Origin: a virus
IMG/VR virus record: IMGVR_UViG_3300021400_000081
Location: 1 to 33,786 of that record
Length of the DNA stretch: 33,786 nt
Reading direction: 5' to 3' (one strand)
Part shown: piece by piece, positions 3,274-33,786 of the stretch
Layout: every line of letters begins with the position of its first letter
Position numbering within the stretch: the stretch's first letter is position 1
Notes under the pieces: generated by a model
Seen by the model: the letters and a program-made list of their open reading frames with translations, nothing else
What the model was told of the DNA's origin: nothing
Database searches by the model: none
Translations under genes and position numbers: made by a program

Positions 3274-5217
3274 ATGACTCAAGAATTAAAAGAAGATATA
3301 TTAAACTATATAACTAATAACATAACTCCAACTGATAAAGATGATACTCAAATATTAGAGAAAGTAGAACAACGTATAAAGCAACAATATAATGAACTTT
3401 TACCAGAATACTGGCAAGATTTAAGAATAACGGGAATTATAAAATCATCAACAAATGGCAATTATATCTTATATGGTGGTTATATTGTAAAAAATGGGGA
3501 ATATATAGAAAGTGATTCTAGGGGTTTAATTCTAATATTAGATGCTTATTTAAACCCAATTAAATCAATATATAAGTTTTCTTCAGGAACACTATTAAGA
3601 CCTATCCAAAAAATGATACAAGTTGAAGATGGAACATTTGTAGCAGTAGATAGCACAATATTTACACGAAAAGAAGATAGAAGGCAAATACAAACTAATA
3701 CCAAGAGATTTATTATGTTAAATAATATCTCAATAAAAGATACAACAAATGATTATAGAGTAATATTAAGAACATCTTATAATATACCCTACTCTAACTT
3801 TTATTGTATAGATATGTTAAAAAACCCTAATTCTGCTCATTATGTTATGGCAGGAGCTATGTATATACCATATAATTCCAATATTCACTTACATAGTGTA
3901 AGAGTAATAGAATTAAAGGTAAATGTAGGAGAAGCAAATGAGTGGACTGAAAAGACTGCACCTACAAACAGATCGTGGATATATGGTGGTTTTTATGGAG
4001 AATTTGATAACGATGATATTTTAACTTGGAAAGCTATTATGACATATAACGAAAACCACCAAGTAGCATTATATAGCTGGGATGGAACTAATTTAAAAAC
4101 TATATTAAATCATTCAAATACATTAGAACCTTATGTAGACTCTCTATCAATGAATAACCAAGCTCAATTTATAAATAGAGATGAATTATATTTTGTAGTC
4201 AATAATCAAAGATGGGGAAGTTCAACTCAACCACGTTATATAGGTTTATATAAATATGATTATAGAACTGCACAAGTAAAAGAAATTTTTTATAAATACA
4301 TAGGAGATTATGATAATCTTACATCAAGAGAAGGAATATTTATAACAAGTTTAAATGGCAACTTATATATAAATTATAATGATAACTATAACTATACTAA
4401 TAAAACAGCTAATTATAGTTATCAAAGACTTGTAAATGATACTTGGAGTCCAATATTATTATATGAAAATGTTTTATATAGTATGGAACGTGAGTTAAGT
4501 TTTACGGATAATACTTATAACTTAATATCAAATATTGAAATTAATTCAAATCTAAATGCTACTTATTGGAATTTTATAACAACAAAAGAGATTTATAATA
4601 ATACTAACTATAATGGTTTACCATATACCGACTATAATTCAATGATAGCAGATACAGGGTTGCTATATGGAGAAGATGGAATATTATTTGCAAGAGATAT
4701 ATATAATAATACAATGATAGAAGGAACAACCACTTCAACACTACAAGTACCCAACACTTTATTAAATGATGTCGATATAACTCAAAAGAAACTATTAGGA
4801 GAAACAAATACAGTTCTAATAAACGATACCAGAACAATAACAAAGAATATATATGAAACATTATATATAAATTTTATAAGGAGTTTAGCAGTAAAGGATG
4901 AAGATACAAATACTTATTACCCTACTACTGCAACTTATATAAATCAAAATATAAATACAGGTACAAAACAAAATTGTGAAATGTCTTTTGTAGGAAAAGT
5001 ACGAATCAATTATCAAGATAGTACATTAATGCAAACACTAGAGTGGACTTTTAACGTAGATCATTATGAAACAAGTTTTGTAATAGATACTCACGATGAA
5101 ATACCAACATCAATAGACTTTATGAGTAATGATGAAACGACAATATATATAACAAAGAACTTAACTTTACAAAGTAATAAATACTACAAAGTAAATCAAA
5201 AGTTAAGGATAGAATAA
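3274..5217 (+). CDS. Tail-associated/baseplate protein in the Tal position
   Basis: The ORF-track start 3265 is a GTG with no SD. ATG 3274 lies 4 nt after aggtgga. The product is 647 aa and N/Y-rich. Function is positional only. Confidence 0.5.
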   Translation: MTQELKEDILNYITNNITPTDKDDTQILEKVEQRIKQQYNELLPEYWQDLRITGIIKSSTNGNYILYGGYIVKNGEYIESDSRGLILILDAYLNPIKSIYKFSSGTLLRPIQKMIQVEDGTFVAVDSTIFTRKEDRRQIQTNTKRFIMLNNISIKDTTNDYRVILRTSYNIPYSNFYCIDMLKNPNSAHYVMAGAMYIPYNSNIHLHSVRVIELKVNVGEANEWTEKTAPTNRSWIYGGFYGEFDNDDILTWKAIMTYNENHQVALYSWDGTNLKTILNHSNTLEPYVDSLSMNNQAQFINRDELYFVVNNQRWGSSTQPRYIGLYKYDYRTAQVKEIFYKYIGDYDNLTSREGIFITSLNGNLYINYNDNYNYTNKTANYSYQRLVNDTWSPILLYENVLYSMERELSFTDNTYNLISNIEINSNLNATYWNFITTKEIYNNTNYNGLPYTDYNSMIADTGLLYGEDGILFARDIYNNTMIEGTTTSTLQVPNTLLNDVDITQKKLLGETNTVLINDTRTITKNIYETLYINFIRSLAVKDEDTNTYYPTTATYINQNINTGTKQNCEMSFVGKVRINYQDSTLMQTLEWTFNVDHYETSFVIDTHDEIPTSIDFMSNDETTIYITKNLTLQSNKYYKVNQKLRIE

Positions 5218-21703: not shown

Positions 21704-21725
21704 ATTGTGGTCTAGATGTGGTCTA
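21704..21725 (+). repeat. Arm-type repeat pair (attgtggtcta / gatgtggtcta)
   Basis: Same orientation and sequence as the 21519..21541 pair. Confidence 0.6.
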
Positions 21726-21738
21726 GAAAGGAGTATAT

Positions 21739-22047
21739 ATGAAAAGAAAGTCAAATAAATTATCTAAATTAGAAAGAAGCAGATTTAGTGTATTTTACGA
21801 ATTAGGAGTATGTATGTATTGTGGCAGTACATATCAACCTACTATACACGAAATCTTTGAAGGTAGGAATAGACAAAACTCTATGAGATATGGTTTTACT
21901 TTACCATTATGTTTAGAGTGTCATAGAAAACTACAAAATAATAAAGAATTCCAGGATCATTGGAAACAAAAAGCACAAAGCTACTTTGAAGAACATATTG
22001 GTACTCACGATGAATTTATGAGAATATTTAGAAGAAACTATAAGTAA
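21739..22047 (+). CDS. Zinc-finger HNH-like nuclease-family protein
   Basis: Contains CMYCGS...HEIFEGRNRQNS...LPLCLECH (CxxC...H...CxxCH). It is the first gene after attP. Confidence 0.45.
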   Translation: MKRKSNKLSKLERSRFSVFYELGVCMYCGSTYQPTIHEIFEGRNRQNSMRYGFTLPLCLECHRKLQNNKEFQDHWKQKAQSYFEEHIGTHDEFMRIFRRNYK

Positions 22048-22125
22048 GATGTCGTAAAAATGTCATACGAACCAGGTTTATAATAAAAGTGTGATGGAAA
22101 AAGTGAAAAAGTCGCAAACCCATAT
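22042..22125 (+). promoter_or_regulatory. Promoter-like cassette copy 1 (direct half-sites + TATAAT)
   Basis: Contains ATGTCGTA 22049-22056, ATGTCATA 22060-22067 and TATAAT 22079-22084. Conserved downstream blocks are 22091-22105 and 22107-22115. A paralogous copy lies at 27467..27579. Confidence 0.5.
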
Positions 22126-22711
22126 ATGTCTTTAAAAGATAAATTATTTAAAAAAGTTTTTAAGCACTCGAATCACACACTGCACTTATCTTTTAAAGGG
22201 ATAGGTGCTTTCATTATTATTCCCCCAGTTGCCTTTGTAGGCAACATAGAGCAGGTATTTTTTTATTTTCAATTTGATATAGGCATAGGACTCCTTTTCT
22301 TCATATAAACCTTGTTTCTTTTTCAATACCTGTTCTATGGTGTCTATAAGACTTTAAAACATTGTACATTAAGTTGTGCTAATCTGCCTATCTTATTCTA
22401 TTGCAGAAGTGATTAGATACCACTTTCTAAGAATGTGTGTGCTATCATTATGGGTAGCATAGAGTAGATATATAAAATAAGTTGTGGTACACGTTGTTTA
22501 TTATTGCAATAATAGACTTTCCACTGCGTCAAGTAGGCTTTTATAAATACTAGTTAAATAAAAGCAAAAAGTAGTTATATCTATTCTATGGTACTTATAA
22601 GAGTACCGATTCTGGTCTAAATTGTTAGTGCAACCTTATCGGTTGCATAGGATAGGTGTTTCTTACAGTTCACTCTCGACGCCTGTCCTATGGTGCTTAT
22701 AAGGAGAAACA
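22085..22711 (+). ncRNA. Large structured non-coding RNA or 5' leader with three paralogous hairpin + long-range-stem units
   Basis: - Unit A: hairpin 22228-22245; stem 22245-22255 with 22329-22339.
- Unit B: hairpin 22440-22459; stem 22458-22469 with 22579-22590.
- Unit C: hairpin 22629-22647; stem 22646-22658 with 22680-22692.
- The units differ by compensatory changes, and all non-Watson-Crick pairs are G:U on the + strand.
- No credible CDS is present. Confidence 0.55.
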
Positions 22712-23104
22712 ATGAAAAGAATTACAAAAGAAATGCTTAAAATTTATAAGCCCTATTCTAATATGGACTGGATGAATTACCGACTAGTAAGAAAAGATAT
22801 GACATTTCACCATTTAACAAAACGTGTAGATGGTGGAAAACAAATAATCACTAATGGTGCTTTATTAATGCCTATAGCTCATCAATACTTACATTTAATA
22901 GAAATAAGAGATATAAGAACATATGAAGCAATTAATCGTATATTTAGGTTAGTAAATGACCAAGAACACGAACCTACTAGGGAACAAAGAGAAATAGTTG
23001 AATATTTATTAAGAGAGTTTGAATCAGTACATAGATGGGATAAGAATAGTAAAGGAGATTTACTTATTCAAAAAAAATATAAAGAAAGAGAGAGAATATT
23101 ATGA
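22712..23104 (+). CDS. HNH endonuclease (packaging-associated type)
   Basis: Contains TFHHLTKRVDGGKQIITNGALLMPIAHQYLH (HH...N...H). SD aaggag lies upstream. Confidence 0.75.
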   Translation: MKRITKEMLKIYKPYSNMDWMNYRLVRKDMTFHHLTKRVDGGKQIITNGALLMPIAHQYLHLIEIRDIRTYEAINRIFRLVNDQEHEPTREQREIVEYLLREFESVHRWDKNSKGDLLIQKKYKERERIL

Positions 23105-25692: not shown

Positions 25693-25963
25693 ATTAATAG
25701 AAGAAAATGGACTAACATTAGAAAGGAGTATACTAGGTATGGAATTTATAAAAAGAAAAGATGGAAACTATATAATCAAAGATAGTGGTTATGTAGTAAG
25801 TGAAAAAGAGAAGCTACAAATGGAAAACAAAGAATTAGTAATCAAAGACATTAGTTCTACTTGTGCTAAAGATATTACTAAAAAAATATCAAAGAATAAA
25901 AAACGTATTAAAGAAATAGAAGAAAATGAGAATATCGAAGAAGCAGAACCAATTAAGGACTGA
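25670..25963 (+). CDS. Hypothetical protein overlapping the terS end and terL start
   Basis: 97 aa, K/E-rich. It overlaps terS by 23 nt and terL by 38 nt. The start is uncertain; ATG 25739 is an alternative. Confidence 0.35.
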   Translation: MKQINLNRLIEENGLTLERSILGMEFIKRKDGNYIIKDSGYVVSEKEKLQMENKELVIKDISSTCAKDITKKISKNKKRIKEIEENENIEEAEPIKD

Positions 25964-27275
25964 TATAATTTCTAAAGATGTTCCTGAAATATATGTATTA
26001 GGTTCTACCCAAAGCGGTAAAACCTTTATTATTGCAGAAGCAATTATAGAATATGCACAAGCATTATACGAATATGAACCTAAAAAGCAGTTCTATGGTG
26101 CTATAGTAGGATGGACTATTGATTCACTTAAAGGAAACATAGTAGAAGTCTTTGAAAGACATTTTAATGAGTTAGGTTGGAAAAACAATGTTCACTATGT
26201 ATTAAAATGGAATAACGATGAAAAAAGTTTAACCTTATATAATATTAAGATATTCTTCTTTGGATTTAACAATGTAAAGAGTTTTAATAAGATATTAGGT
26301 AGACCTTTAATACTAGAGTGGATAGATGAATCGGCAAGAATTTATACCAATAAAGAATTACAGGGAAGTTTTAATGAATTCCCTGGTAGACAAATGTCTT
26401 TTGCAGGGCATCCTTATTTAAAGACTATACACTCCTTTAACGTAGAAGGATCAAGTAGACATCCATACAAAGAAACATACATAGACAATAAACCAAATGC
26501 AAAACACTATACGTTTTTCCCATATGATAACCCAATGCTAGATACTGAAGAAAAAATAAAGCAGGTTGTAGAGATGTTTCCACCTGGTAGTTTAAGACAA
26601 CAAAAAGTATTTAATGAGTGGGTAATAGCAGAAGGTAAAGTATTTAATCAATTAAATGTAATAAAAGAGTGCCCATATATGATAAGAGAAATACATATAG
26701 GTATAGACTATGGTTCAGTAAACCCAACTGTCTTTGTACCAATAGCATTATGTTTAGATAATAGACAATGGAAACTAGTAAGACTAGAGTGCTATTATCA
26801 TAACCCTAAAGATATGGATGATACACCTACTACTGAATACTATTCAAAACAATTAAGGATGTTTATGGTTTATTTAAAAGCACAATACCCTGGAATACCT
26901 ATTAAGACAATAGTAATAGATAGTGAAGCTAGTCATTTTGATAATAGACTAACAGTTGATGGAATACAACACGATATAAGTAAGAAAGGTCCAGGTTCAG
27001 TAAACGAAGGTGTAGAATACTTACAAAGTTTATTCTATAAAGGGTATTTAGAAATATTAGAGAAACCTTCAATAACAAACTTTTACCCAGATGGACATTA
27101 TGAAGAAAGTGGAAAAGATGAAAGTCTAGTAGAGTTTGACTCATATCAATATGATAGGATAAAGAGTGAAACTACAGGAACAAATGTATATAAGAAAGAC
27201 CTAGATCATAGTATTGATGCTACAAGATATGTTCTAGATTTAATGAAAGACATAGGAGTTGCACCAGTGGTATGA
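25926..27275 (+). CDS. terL: Terminase large subunit
   Basis: Has Walker A VLGSTQSGKTF, Walker B-like LILEWIDESA, and the nuclease-domain motif IGIDYGSVNPT. The product is 449 aa. Confidence 0.9.
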   Translation: MRISKKQNQLRTDIISKDVPEIYVLGSTQSGKTFIIAEAIIEYAQALYEYEPKKQFYGAIVGWTIDSLKGNIVEVFERHFNELGWKNNVHYVLKWNNDEKSLTLYNIKIFFFGFNNVKSFNKILGRPLILEWIDESARIYTNKELQGSFNEFPGRQMSFAGHPYLKTIHSFNVEGSSRHPYKETYIDNKPNAKHYTFFPYDNPMLDTEEKIKQVVEMFPPGSLRQQKVFNEWVIAEGKVFNQLNVIKECPYMIREIHIGIDYGSVNPTVFVPIALCLDNRQWKLVRLECYYHNPKDMDDTPTTEYYSKQLRMFMVYLKAQYPGIPIKTIVIDSEASHFDNRLTVDGIQHDISKKGPGSVNEGVEYLQSLFYKGYLEILEKPSITNFYPDGHYEESGKDESLVEFDSYQYDRIKSETTGTNVYKKDLDHSIDATRYVLDLMKDIGVAPVV

Positions 27276-27472
27276 AAGTACGTTGTAAGAAAAGTAAAAG
27301 ATTTTTGGTTGATATTCAGCTTGAAACATATTTAGAGAATTTAAGAAAGATAGGGATAAAACAGGAACTACCTTTAAGAATAACCTTACCCTGTCCACGT
27401 TGTCATAAGATAGAAGTATACGATATATACGAAAATAGATACGAATTTATAGAAAATATCGAAATTAAGTAA
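27272..27472 (+). CDS. Small zinc-ribbon protein (Com-like, first Cys pair degenerate)
   Basis: 66 aa, MKVRCKKSKRFL...LPCPRCHKIEVY. It is inserted between terL and portal. Confidence 0.45.
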   Translation: MKVRCKKSKRFLVDIQLETYLENLRKIGIKQELPLRITLPCPRCHKIEVYDIYENRYEFIENIEIK

Positions 27473-27579
27473 GATGTCGTATTTATGTCATATCTTATGT
27501 AATATAATAATAGTGATAGAAGAAAGTGCAAATATAGGACTGAAAAGTCGCTATCAGGCATATGAACGGAGATGTTTAT
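27467..27579 (+). promoter_or_regulatory. Promoter-like cassette copy 2
   Basis: Contains ATGTCGTA 27474-27481, ATGTCATA 27485-27492 and TATAAT 27503-27508. The conserved blocks are 27513-27528 and 27543-27551. It begins at the same aagTAAg stop context as copy 1. Confidence 0.5.
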
Positions 27580-27828
27580 ATGTCTTTTTTTAATAAAAAA
27601 TGGAAAATGCACTTATATCTAAACGGCATTTATGTAGGAAAAATAAGAATAAGAGAAGATGAAGAACCAAGTAAGAACTGGTATGTAGTACACTTTTGGT
27701 TTAAAAAGCAAATATTTAAGAGTAATCACGTTAAATGTGTTATCCACCCTACTAGATGTCTAGGAACACACGATGCGAAAAAAACTACTCATTGGACATT
27801 TGAGTATGAGAAGGGAGAAGAAGTATGA
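27580..27828 (+). CDS. Hypothetical protein
   Basis: The track start 27562 has no SD. ATG 27580 lies 7 nt after ggaga. The product is 82 aa and its stop overlaps the portal start. Confidence 0.5.
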   Translation: MSFFNKKWKMHLYLNGIYVGKIRIREDEEPSKNWYVVHFWFKKQIFKSNHVKCVIHPTRCLGTHDAKKTTHWTFEYEKGEEV

Positions 27829-33243: not shown

Positions 33244-33714
33244 ATGAACGAATATTTTGTAAGTAATCGTGATGTCATTAAGAACTTTAGTTTTAATACA
33301 GGAACTTCAAGTACACCAGTATACACAAATATGTGTACTGCTACTGAACTAGCATTAAATACAAGTTTCACTGAACAAACTTTTTCAGTATTTTGTGATG
33401 CTTTACAAAGATCAATTAAAACTGGAGTAGCAATGACTATCGAAGGAACAATAAAAATTGATGTAAACAATGTAGCTATTCAAAAAGTTCTAGGAGATGT
33501 TGGAACACTAATATCAAGTGGAACAATATCACAATTTAATAATCAAATGGTTAAATTTGATTTATTAACAGGAGTTGAAAATAGTACATTAGAATATACA
33601 ACTTACACTTGCAATGTATCTTACCAACTAGAAAGTCTAGGTGGAAGTGCAGAAGATGTAGGAGAATTTGCAATAACTATGACAATTAACGGAACAGGCA
33701 CTGCAAGTGCATAG
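33244..33714 (+). CDS. Major tail protein
   Basis: The track start 33205 has no SD. ATG 33244 follows aaaggag. The product is 156 aa, the last gene before the tape measure, and is followed by a terminator hairpin. Confidence 0.6.
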   Translation: MNEYFVSNRDVIKNFSFNTGTSSTPVYTNMCTATELALNTSFTEQTFSVFCDALQRSIKTGVAMTIEGTIKIDVNNVAIQKVLGDVGTLISSGTISQFNNQMVKFDLLTGVENSTLEYTTYTCNVSYQLESLGGSAEDVGEFAITMTINGTGTASA

Positions 33715-33786
33715 AAACTCTATAAGGAGTTAGGGGTTTTACTCCTAATTCCTATTTTTTTACAAGAAAGGAGTTGAGAAAATGAA
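33680..33786. repeat. Terminal direct repeat copy 2 (circularisation overlap)
   Basis: Exact copy of bases 1..107. Confidence 0.95.
33725..33761 (+). terminator. Intrinsic terminator/attenuator between the major tail and tape-measure genes (also present at 46..82)
   Basis: aggagttagg (33725-33734) pairs with cctaattcct (33744-33753). This gives 10 bp with one G:U, followed by a ttttttt run (33755-33761). Confidence 0.6.

Follow-up and report, generated by a model that had tools for sequence, protein, structure and literature searches.

What does a phage keep in the largest gap between its genes, at the head of its late operon? We asked this question of the viral record IMGVR_UViG_3300021400_000081, whose whole stretch of 33,786 nucleotides (nt) is called the window in what follows and whose largest gap, when open reading frames (ORFs) of at least 60 amino acids (aa) are counted, lies at 22085-22711. 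A sequence-only reading of the window had described this gap as non-coding and as folding into three paralogous RNA units with compensatory changes, and it had offered as possible explanations a large ornate non-coding RNA, a put-like antitermination RNA or a cos/pac recognition region. The three units, A, B and C, were found again where that reading had placed them, within 22228-22704, and they belong to an undescribed structured RNA family that has no match in Rfam 15. Each unit can adopt two folds, and both folds are maintained by selection. The units are very probably structured cis-elements that act at the RNA level, and our tentative reading of their role, to which we give a probability of about 40%, is that of a cis-acting mRNA processing and stability module with an RNase III-type cut.

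Three units in the window and their relatives in other phages

Each complete unit consists of a helix, P, whose two strands lie far apart, and of two local hairpins, H1 and H2, at its flanks. A repeat search of the window, which was used to measure the arms, showed that the long-range arms exceed the extent first described and form inverted repeats of 25-26 nt: 25 nt in unit A (22235-22259 with 22325-22349, 84% complementary), 25 nt in unit B (22448-22472 with 22576-22600, 84% complementary) and 26 nt in unit C (22634-22659 with 22679-22704, 73% complementary). The 3' arms of the three units make up a three-copy direct-repeat family: the 16-mer CTATGGTNCTTATAAG, with two mismatches at most, was matched three times in 33.8 kb, always inside the gap, for an expected 0.14, and none of 100 shuffled sequences reached three matches. 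The tail GTNNCTTATAAG, previously taken for a separate motif behind the long stem, is actually the 3' strand of the outer extension of that stem, and in unit B and most relatives it also serves as the 5' half and the loop of H2.

All three units lie on the + strand. Unit B (22440-22607) has the complete form, with H1 at 22440-22459, P formed by 22458-22471 and 22577-22590, and H2 at 22590-22607; its interior of 105 nt contains, on the same strand, the extra local hairpin 22496-22517 that had been noticed before, which the repeat search recovered (11-nt arms, 91% complementary) and which is not conserved in the family. Unit A (22228-22350) has H1 at 22228-22245, P formed by 22245-22258 and 22326-22339, an outer extension that pairs 22235-22244 with 22340-22349, and a poor H2. 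In unit C (22629-22704), H1 spans 22629-22647, P pairs 22646-22659 with 22679-22692, and 22693-22704 supplies the 3' strand of the outer extension; H2 is lacking, a ribosome-binding site (RBS) standing in its place. When folded alone as RNA and compared with shuffled sequences, units A, B and C reached -35.4 kcal/mol (z = -5.3), -45.8 kcal/mol (z = -5.4) and -31.2 kcal/mol (z = -5.1), respectively. A covariance model of the family gave 34.7 bits (E = 3e-7) for unit C; this model cannot bridge long interiors, splitting unit B into two halves that it matched separately (26.4 and 20.7 bits) and missing unit A. The only ORF that had been seen in the gap, 22126-22308, overlaps H1 and the 5' arm of unit A and has no homologue in any of the loci that were fetched, so that a protein-coding reading of the gap was rejected and its description as non-coding was upheld.

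Searches of Rfam 15 returned 0 matches over the whole window at gathering scores, five chance-level matches to eukaryotic small nucleolar RNA, microRNA and histone families in 21900-22900 at E values up to 10, and only tRNA matches in 17 related loci. A self-cleaving ribozyme (hammerhead, twister and the like) was also rejected, as the units lack a conserved unpaired core and are not matched by Rfam, and so was a mimic of the Cas12a repeat, for which GUAGAU is present in the wrong order, taken here as a coincidence. When the region, 25 kb of the genome and a consensus unit were compared by BLAST with 50,697 deposited phage genomes, nothing beyond chance came up, and the element is absent from the cultured phages among the genomes searched.

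Relatives came from uncultured phages. Homologues of the 130-aa protein encoded just downstream of the gap led to ~45 loci in IMG/VR and in metagenome-assembled Firmicutes genomes, and profile searches with the arms in loci fetched via the neighbouring gene identified 42 distinct units, present in most of these loci. Wherever the 130-aa gene is present, the units are on its strand; they usually stand immediately behind its stop codon, but in some cases, the window among them, they precede the gene. An early 15-mer scan of IMG/VR had given single matches only, several of which proved to be real units, and an exact 15-mer from the 3' arm had matches in over 119 additional viral contigs. A structure-only finder, based on two dinucleotide anchors and base pairing, then detected 236 units (183 distinct) in 135 loci, compared to 3 on reversed sequences. 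A phage genome carries 1-6 units, three of them at one locus in the case of the window, and a metagenome scan found real units in 15 of 120 matched stretches, with at most three per stretch. The family is broader than this finder detects, since locus L088 (~3355-3490), and locus L089 at the equivalent place, contain a divergent unit without the GC...GG anchors, in which H1 is CACTAAC-TTTATA-GTTAGTG, P is TACTAATTCATA.../...TATGAGTTAGTA and H2 is GTACC-TATAA-GGGTAC.

The units are independent of the 130-aa gene, since this gene is present in only 58 of the 135 unit-bearing loci; any dependence on it was rejected on account of the 77 loci that have no homologue, and close relatives with the same gene order lack it too. 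At one locus near-identical to the window, L067 (232-677; IMGVR_UViG_3300028805_001659), a free-standing homing-endonuclease-like ORF (MEIWKNIKGYEGLYQISNYGRVKS...) is found together with a different unit B, and this difference, which sits between units A and C, is an insertion/replacement polymorphism.

Two folds of the + strand

We placed the units on two anchors set by the analyst's hand, J1 (the C of GCATAG) and J2 (the first G of CTATGG). In helix P, J1+k is paired with J2-k over 14 positions, each of which is paired in 88-100% of the units with many pair types, and the helix is built from many unrelated sequences, for example CATATTGAGTAAATAT / ATATTTACTTGATATG. The interior that it closes is 5-364 nt long (median 55) and has no sequence in common between units. 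Outward from P, in the 42 units found by sequence, position 1 is always a G.G mismatch and positions 2-11 are paired in 76-100% of cases, and the extended fold is a hairpin of ~25 bp made of P, the invariant G.G mismatch and ~10 more pairs. In the alternative fold, the outer strands fold back on their flanks instead of pairing with each other, which creates a three-way junction with the local hairpins H1 (TGCnnnn-loop-nnnnGCA) and H2 (GGTnnnn-loop-nnnnACY). The loops of these two hairpins (UUAUA and UAUAA) are complementary in the three-way junction, and their rare variants change jointly (UUACA/UGUAA, UUGCA/UGCAA, UUGU/ACAA, UAGUA/UACUA, UUAGU/ACUAA and CAUA/UAUG).

Covariation was counted on 89 units with 500 shuffles, using an anchor-based alignment padded with N because the register of the 5' strand of H1 shifted when whole units were aligned with MAFFT. 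For the three-way junction with its loop pairs, 96.9% of the cells were paired and 256 pairs had changed on both sides, compared to 50.5 in shuffled alignments; for the extended hairpin, these values were 96.7%, 170 and 24.4, and in neither case did any of the 500 shuffles score as high. Slid registers left 30-51% of the cells paired (at most 48% for the three-way junction). The proposal that compensatory changes maintain the stems is borne out by ~170 homologous units in other phages. The fairer guides in this evidence are the counts of double changes, the variety of sequences that build P and the 42 units recovered by sequence.

Little energy separates the two folds: with loop-loop pairs left uncounted, the extended hairpin comes out ahead by 3.0 +/- 4.0 kcal/mol, and it is the minimum-free-energy (MFE) fold in 83 of 112 units. 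Units that have no H1 because they start at a stop codon, or no H2 because they end in an RBS like unit C, keep the extended fold. In unit C, this fold, which is also the MFE one, pairs 22699-22704 with CCUUAU of the H1 region.

The strand on which the structure forms could be told from the non-Watson-Crick pairs, among which G:U exceeds A:C by ~50 to 1 overall. When both kinds were scored alike, the G:U to A:C ratios were 102:4 in H1 and 141:2 in H2, and in the sequence-found set they were 40:2 in P, 20:0 in H1 and 33:0 in H2. Since mismatches are far more often of the G:U than of the A:C type, the folded molecule is the + strand, most simply as RNA. Folding energies agree: 22085-22711 reached -169.6 kcal/mol (z = -6.6) on the + strand and -132.8 kcal/mol (z = -3.6) on the - strand, which is 37 kcal/mol in favour of the + strand, and single units show a like asymmetry. 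The sequence-only reading had called wobble pairs strand-specific, which these data from relatives support, and had found mismatches of the G:T type only, which holds for nearly all non-Watson-Crick positions on the + strand of the parsed helices of units A, B and C but not for some in H2 of unit A and in the tail of unit C.

Placement of the units and their possible role

Units are intergenic in 161 of 185 cases and always in sense orientation, with a co-oriented upstream gene in 162 of ~175. They occur alone (80 of 127 arrays) or in arrays of two (37), three (9) or four (1) with a median gap of 17.5 nt between neighbours, in which only occasionally a tRNA gene, the HNH-like gene or a homing-endonuclease gene is found. 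In 37 of 112 arrays, P starts no more than 30 nt from the upstream stop codon; this stop codon lies in the outer helix in most relatives, and over 100 nt usually separate a unit from the next start codon. The sites used precede TerS-like/TerL genes, the portal gene or the scaffold and major head genes, and two or three separate sites are occupied in each of four loci (L003, L118, L129 and L186). Neither an intrinsic terminator nor a sigma-70 promoter was retained as an explanation: H2 is not followed by a T-run, and inside the unit a promoter could neither be fitted by eye nor did the scan report one.

Each of the 46 tRNA genes found in unit-bearing loci shares its strand with the unit; 34 of them are within 300 nt of one, and 26 of these 34 are downstream, mostly at 50-140 nt. 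The units themselves are not tRNAs, as the window has no tRNA gene and a tRNA-like interior was seen in only 5 of 168 units elsewhere. In two of these, L151 8938-9028 and L185 2417-2507, P encloses a tRNA matched by Rfam RF00005 with 44.5 and 43.4 bits; a Y RNA (YrlA) was considered for the units with such interiors and rejected, because Rfam gives tRNA only. The nested cloverleaf, also seen in L031, L130 and L205, has a long variable arm and an acceptor stem that continues P, with no CCA after it. Just downstream of units, tRNA genes form clusters (for example L003 8310-8384, L077 1354-1430 and L128 6376-7098, the last locus having a run of 11 tRNAs), tRNA-Arg(CCU) is the commonest among them, and each is preceded by a small conserved hairpin and has TATAT at its 5' end.

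We read the units of the window as separate modules in the 5' leader of the late (packaging and head) operon, which would be transcribed through them. In the processing and stability module that we favour, a host double-strand-specific RNase of the RNase III type would cut the extended duplex; the upstream fragment would then refold to H1, a 3'-terminal hairpin that could block 3' exonucleases, and the downstream fragment to H2, a 5'-terminal hairpin that could block an RNase J-type 5' exonuclease. The long late transcript would in this way be split into separately stable segments, and the module might also shield coding segments when phage tRNAs next to them are processed. Such a cut-and-refold model accounts at once for selection on the pairing of strands a:b, b:c and c:d, and a processing role also accounts for the indifference to the apical insert, for the placement between genes needed in different amounts and for the siting by tRNA genes, whose excision exposes mRNA ends. 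RNase III needs a duplex of about two helical turns, and the extended fold is about two turns long. With the 14-bp P, the G.G mismatch and ~10 further pairs on the sense strand, it has the properties of an RNase III duplex, i.e., at least ~20 bp with a possible internal mismatch (for a review of this enzyme, see PMC3867540).

Among known systems, the units would work most like the RNase III sites of phage T7 (early and late) and of the Bacillus phage SP82 and like REP hairpins, and they are built like a REPIN. The T7 and SP82 sites are likewise paralogous hairpins; they span about two turns, have an internal mismatch at a fixed place and are intercistronic in long phage transcripts, in sense orientation and present several times per genome. 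The hairpin left at the fragment end of these sites stabilises the mRNA, and REP hairpins shield the mRNA upstream of them against 3' exonucleases. In sequence, the T7/SP82 sites and the units are not similar; unlike these sites, the units have flanking hairpins that compete with the outer helix, complementary loops, an apical insert that varies freely over 5-364 nt, tandem arrays and an association with tRNA genes, and their cleavage is what we infer.

Several points speak against this processing module. The large set of units was gathered by a finder for which P and the outer helix had to be paired, and the percentages of paired positions are therefore inflated; the units are moreover related by descent, so that shuffle controls overstate significance. 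Unit A is the weakest member of the family, with 6.6 bits in the covariance model. Selection on a + strand DNA hairpin would yield the same covariation and the same G:T excess. As to the role itself, the RNase III cut and the stabilisation are parts that we infer; 47 of 127 arrays hold two to four units, and a plain processing hairpin has no obvious need of tandem copies, nor does it obviously need the invariant G.G mismatch or the conserved complementarity of the loops.

The strand-specific fold could instead belong to single-stranded DNA, the units being recombination or transposition sites like REPINs, IS200/IS605-type palindromic elements or attC, which would bound or move cassettes (tRNA genes, the 130-aa HNH-like gene, the homing-endonuclease gene) and whose RNA fold would be incidental; we regard this as unlikely. 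REP/BIME elements and REPINs are also extragenic imperfect palindromes in inverted pairs, with a long hairpin, a small palindrome in each arm and compensatory change (PMC3116915), and the units do show the REPIN architecture, with arms of 25-33 nt that each contain a local palindrome, H1 or H2. REPINs, however, are found in tens to hundreds per bacterial chromosome and depend on a RAYT transposase, whereas phage genomes carry 1-6 units, always in sense; three copies in the window and at most three per metagenome stretch (15 real stretches of 120), with no multi-copy contig, do not make a high-copy element. No RAYT (HUH Y1) transposase is found among the annotated flanking genes, host genomes not having been searched, and the stems of H1 and H2 vary between units in a way that fits one recognising transposase poorly. 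Mobility could be suspected from the variation of copy number and position among close relatives, from units lying on either side of the HNH-like gene (58/135 loci), from the homing-endonuclease ORF and different unit B that distinguish L067 from the window, from mosaic junctions inside units, from the frequent start of P at the stop codon of the upstream gene and from an integrase gene ~0.7 kb upstream. Yet no target-site duplications were detected (mean flank repeat of 1.9 nt compared to 1.85 in controls), no clean empty site was found, the matches of that search being artefacts of neighbouring units, and the units are built into expression signals, with stop codons on one side and Shine-Dalgarno (SD) sequences on the other; besides, the junctions between the window and L067 are at non-equivalent points of the units, which fits homologous recombination between repeats. 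In their logic the units recall attC sites, in which one strand folds, structure is kept over sequence, one unpaired position is fixed around a variable terminal structure or centre, arrays are uniformly oriented and the site often starts at the preceding stop codon. A family of sequence-unrelated, attC-like sites bounding mobile cassettes, and with it an integron-like exchange in the late region of tailed phages, is very unlikely. The attC core GTTRRRY / RYYYAAC is not present in the units, the unit ends being TGCnnnn...nnnnGCA and GGTnnnn...nnnnACY, most neighbouring units have no gene between them, and the nearby integrase has an arm-binding domain and is of the ordinary phage type. At the RNA level, the same idea would make of P an excision stem that may release cargo RNAs, such as the nested tRNAs of L151 and L185. 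A cos/pac region had also been proposed, which the terminase and HNH packaging machinery would recognise, and the units do adjoin the HNH-like gene, ~3.2 kb upstream of TerL; in many relatives they directly follow that gene, which is the position of cos in HK97-type phages (PMC3592412), and many contigs end near units. This proposal is largely refuted and retains hardly any probability: in L003, L118, L129 and L186 units are present at two or three sites kilobases apart (TerS/TerL, portal, scaffold/capsid) and are therefore not a unique cos/pac site, the HNH-like gene has no homologue in 77 of the 135 loci, a site bound by protein as double-stranded DNA would not be expected to show compensatory change and an excess of G:U, contigs ordinarily break off at repeats during assembly, and the assembly of the window closes elsewhere, at 1-107 = 33680-33786, far from the units.

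Other readings keep the fold in RNA and give it another task. In the manner of HK022 put, EAR or conAn2, a nascent unit could bind the elongating RNA polymerase in cis and let it pass the terminators within the 23-kb late operon, units deeper in an operon renewing the effect. Like these structured cis-acting RNAs, the units stand in the leader of a long mobile-element operon (PMC9378689, PMC8191782), and RNA-only antiterminators are varied in Gram-positive elements (PMC8191782, PMC9378689); the units come right after the promoter-like cassette described below, upstream of terminator-like hairpins at 27556-27585 and 33725-33753 inside the operon, and they recur deeper in the operons of other phages. 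Unlike put, EAR and conAn2, they occur in one to four tandem copies, also deep in operons, and downstream of a first terminator-like hairpin (22182-22208, with equivalents in L088 and L089), on which they therefore cannot act. A second cassette with its hairpin (27465-27585) has no unit at all, there are almost no conserved unpaired nucleotides for contact with the polymerase, and it is with tRNA genes and the 3' end of the upstream gene that the units are most tightly linked. The put-like antiterminator is thus weakened, keeping the hairpins at 27556 and 33725 in its favour and losing the one at 22182-22208, and we hold it to be improbable. The closeness in energy of two covarying folds might rather point to a bistable riboregulator, set by the terminating ribosome or by a junction-binding protein, that controls the translation or the coupling of neighbouring cistrons: the extended fold of unit C pairs 22699-22704, including the first four bases of the SD, and the upstream stop codon is in the outer helix in most relatives. 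We consider it quite improbable, as only the last unit of an array can contact an RBS, the next start codon usually lies >100 nt away, many units precede tRNA genes instead of ORFs and tandem copies would be left without an explanation. That the whole region of ~630 nt is one large ornate RNA of the ROOL/GOLLD type is hardly credible despite its z of -6.6 and an MFE closing helix of ~22156-22168 with 22693-22705: the suggested check against Rfam for ROOL, GOLLD and HEARO gave no match even at E values up to 10, 80 of 127 arrays have a single unit, number and spacing vary, and neither the spacers nor the 5' 140 nt share the conservation of the units, so that membership in these families was refuted and the units are autonomous. 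Finally, the junction with complementary loops may recall the phage-encoded pRNA of phi29, in which two hairpins at a three-way junction likewise have complementary loops (PMC5066667). The topology is permuted, since in the units the two hairpins flank a closed helix; unlike phi29, unit phages have an ordinary large terminase, and their units are in arrays and beside tRNA genes. The pRNA belongs to phi29-like phages with protein-primed DNA; no Rfam pRNA match was obtained here, and the window genome encodes TerL, a portal protein and an integrase.

If the RNA reading is true, the units are a widespread structured RNA family, lacking in Rfam 15, from uncultured phages of gut and rumen Firmicutes, with an unusual design of two mutually exclusive selected folds, complementary loops and an apex that accepts any insert including whole tRNAs. 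They would offer a handle on how phages split and stabilise a 20-kb late transcript, on how tRNAs embedded in mRNA are released without destroying neighbouring messages and on why this intergenic island is a hot spot of gene gain and loss, and the module could serve as a compact RNA insulator or end-protector in synthetic operons of Gram-positive hosts. If the units were single-stranded DNA sites after all, they would represent a new system of cassette exchange in phages.

Promoter-like cassette, leader and neighbouring genes

Upstream of the units, on the + strand, lies a promoter-like cassette (22040-22081), TAAGTAAG-ATGTC-N6-ATGTC-ATA ... TATAAT, in which TATAAT is at 22076-22081 and which is context and not a part of any unit. 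It begins at the stop codon of a DUF968-like gene, and a paralogous copy, identical at 24 of 27 positions, was found at 27465-27505. Cassettes with ATGTC-N-ATGTC and TATAAT/TATACT are present 70-590 nt upstream of the units in seven other phages (L088, L089, L118, L129, L207, L025 and L141), which supports the earlier placement of the units downstream of such a cassette at the head of the late operon; in unit-bearing loci, 21 cassettes are on the strand of the units and 4 on the opposite one. We read the cassette as a probable late promoter with an activator site. The two cassette regions of the window, 22040-22110 and 27465-27535, share TAAGTAAGATGTCGTAnnnATGTCATA ... TATAATAA-AGTGAT-GAA-AAAGTG, and both begin at the stop codon that ends a small Cys-rich gene, with a terminator-like hairpin coming after each; the double cassette looks like an activator- or antiterminator-controlled late promoter used twice.

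Between the first cassette and unit A, a leader (22082-22218, + strand) with its own terminator-like stem-loop at 22182-22208 and a T-rich tail is an element distinct from the units. The region first delimited as 22085-22711 accordingly has to be divided, the units holding 22228-22704 and its first ~140 nt (22085-22227) belonging to this leader. A terminator scan gave 12 pairs for the hairpin, followed by TTTCATTATT, and L088 and L089 have an equivalent hairpin and T-run at the same place. The start of the leader, AAAAGTGTGATGGAAAAAGTGAAAA, is conserved at the second cassette (27502-27531) and in L141; the second terminator-like hairpin, 27556-27585, follows the second cassette, and a further one is at 33725-33753 (= 46-74).

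The two ends of the window, 1-107 and 33680-33786, are identical over 107 nt, and the window is therefore a complete genome of ~33.68 kb in a circularly closed (or terminally redundant) assembly. Upstream of the gap are genes for a helix-turn-helix regulator, a tyrosine integrase and a 102-aa DUF968/HNH-like protein; downstream are those for the 130-aa protein, small proteins, a glycosyltransferase and TerL, the latter starting at 25926. As had been proposed, the tail of unit C carries the SD of the 130-aa gene (AAGGAG at 22701-22706, ATG at 22712, + strand; 22701-22714 in all). The label of HNH gene given to this ORF stands only weakly, as PF01844 of Pfam stays under threshold with a best E value of 0.0011 among 4 homologues. 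The gene (22712-23104) behaves like an inserted cassette: it is present or absent among phages of like gene order and lies on either side of the units, and in L012, which is without it, a similar unit tail and SD directly precede the homologue of the next gene. In L077, L078, L079, L111, L113, L114 and L115, the HNH-like gene is frameshifted in its ..LLMPVAH.. region, and the five frameshifted copies that were aligned have a C-rich insertion of 5 nt (GCCCT or CCCCT) at two nearby positions, which could be a sign of a pseudogene, of a programmed frameshift or of a footprint.

Two minor features of the window complete this picture. In the 230-nt gap between the integrase and DUF968-like genes, a tandem direct repeat, GTGGTCTAGAT GTGGTCTAGA (21707-21727), stands directly before the RBS of the DUF968-like gene and may be an operator or an integrase arm site. 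At 27271-27472, an unannotated small ORF (~66 aa, ...PCPRCHKIEVYDIYENRYEFIENIEIK) overlaps the end of TerL and finishes at the second cassette, in a position that mirrors that of the DUF968-like gene before the first one.

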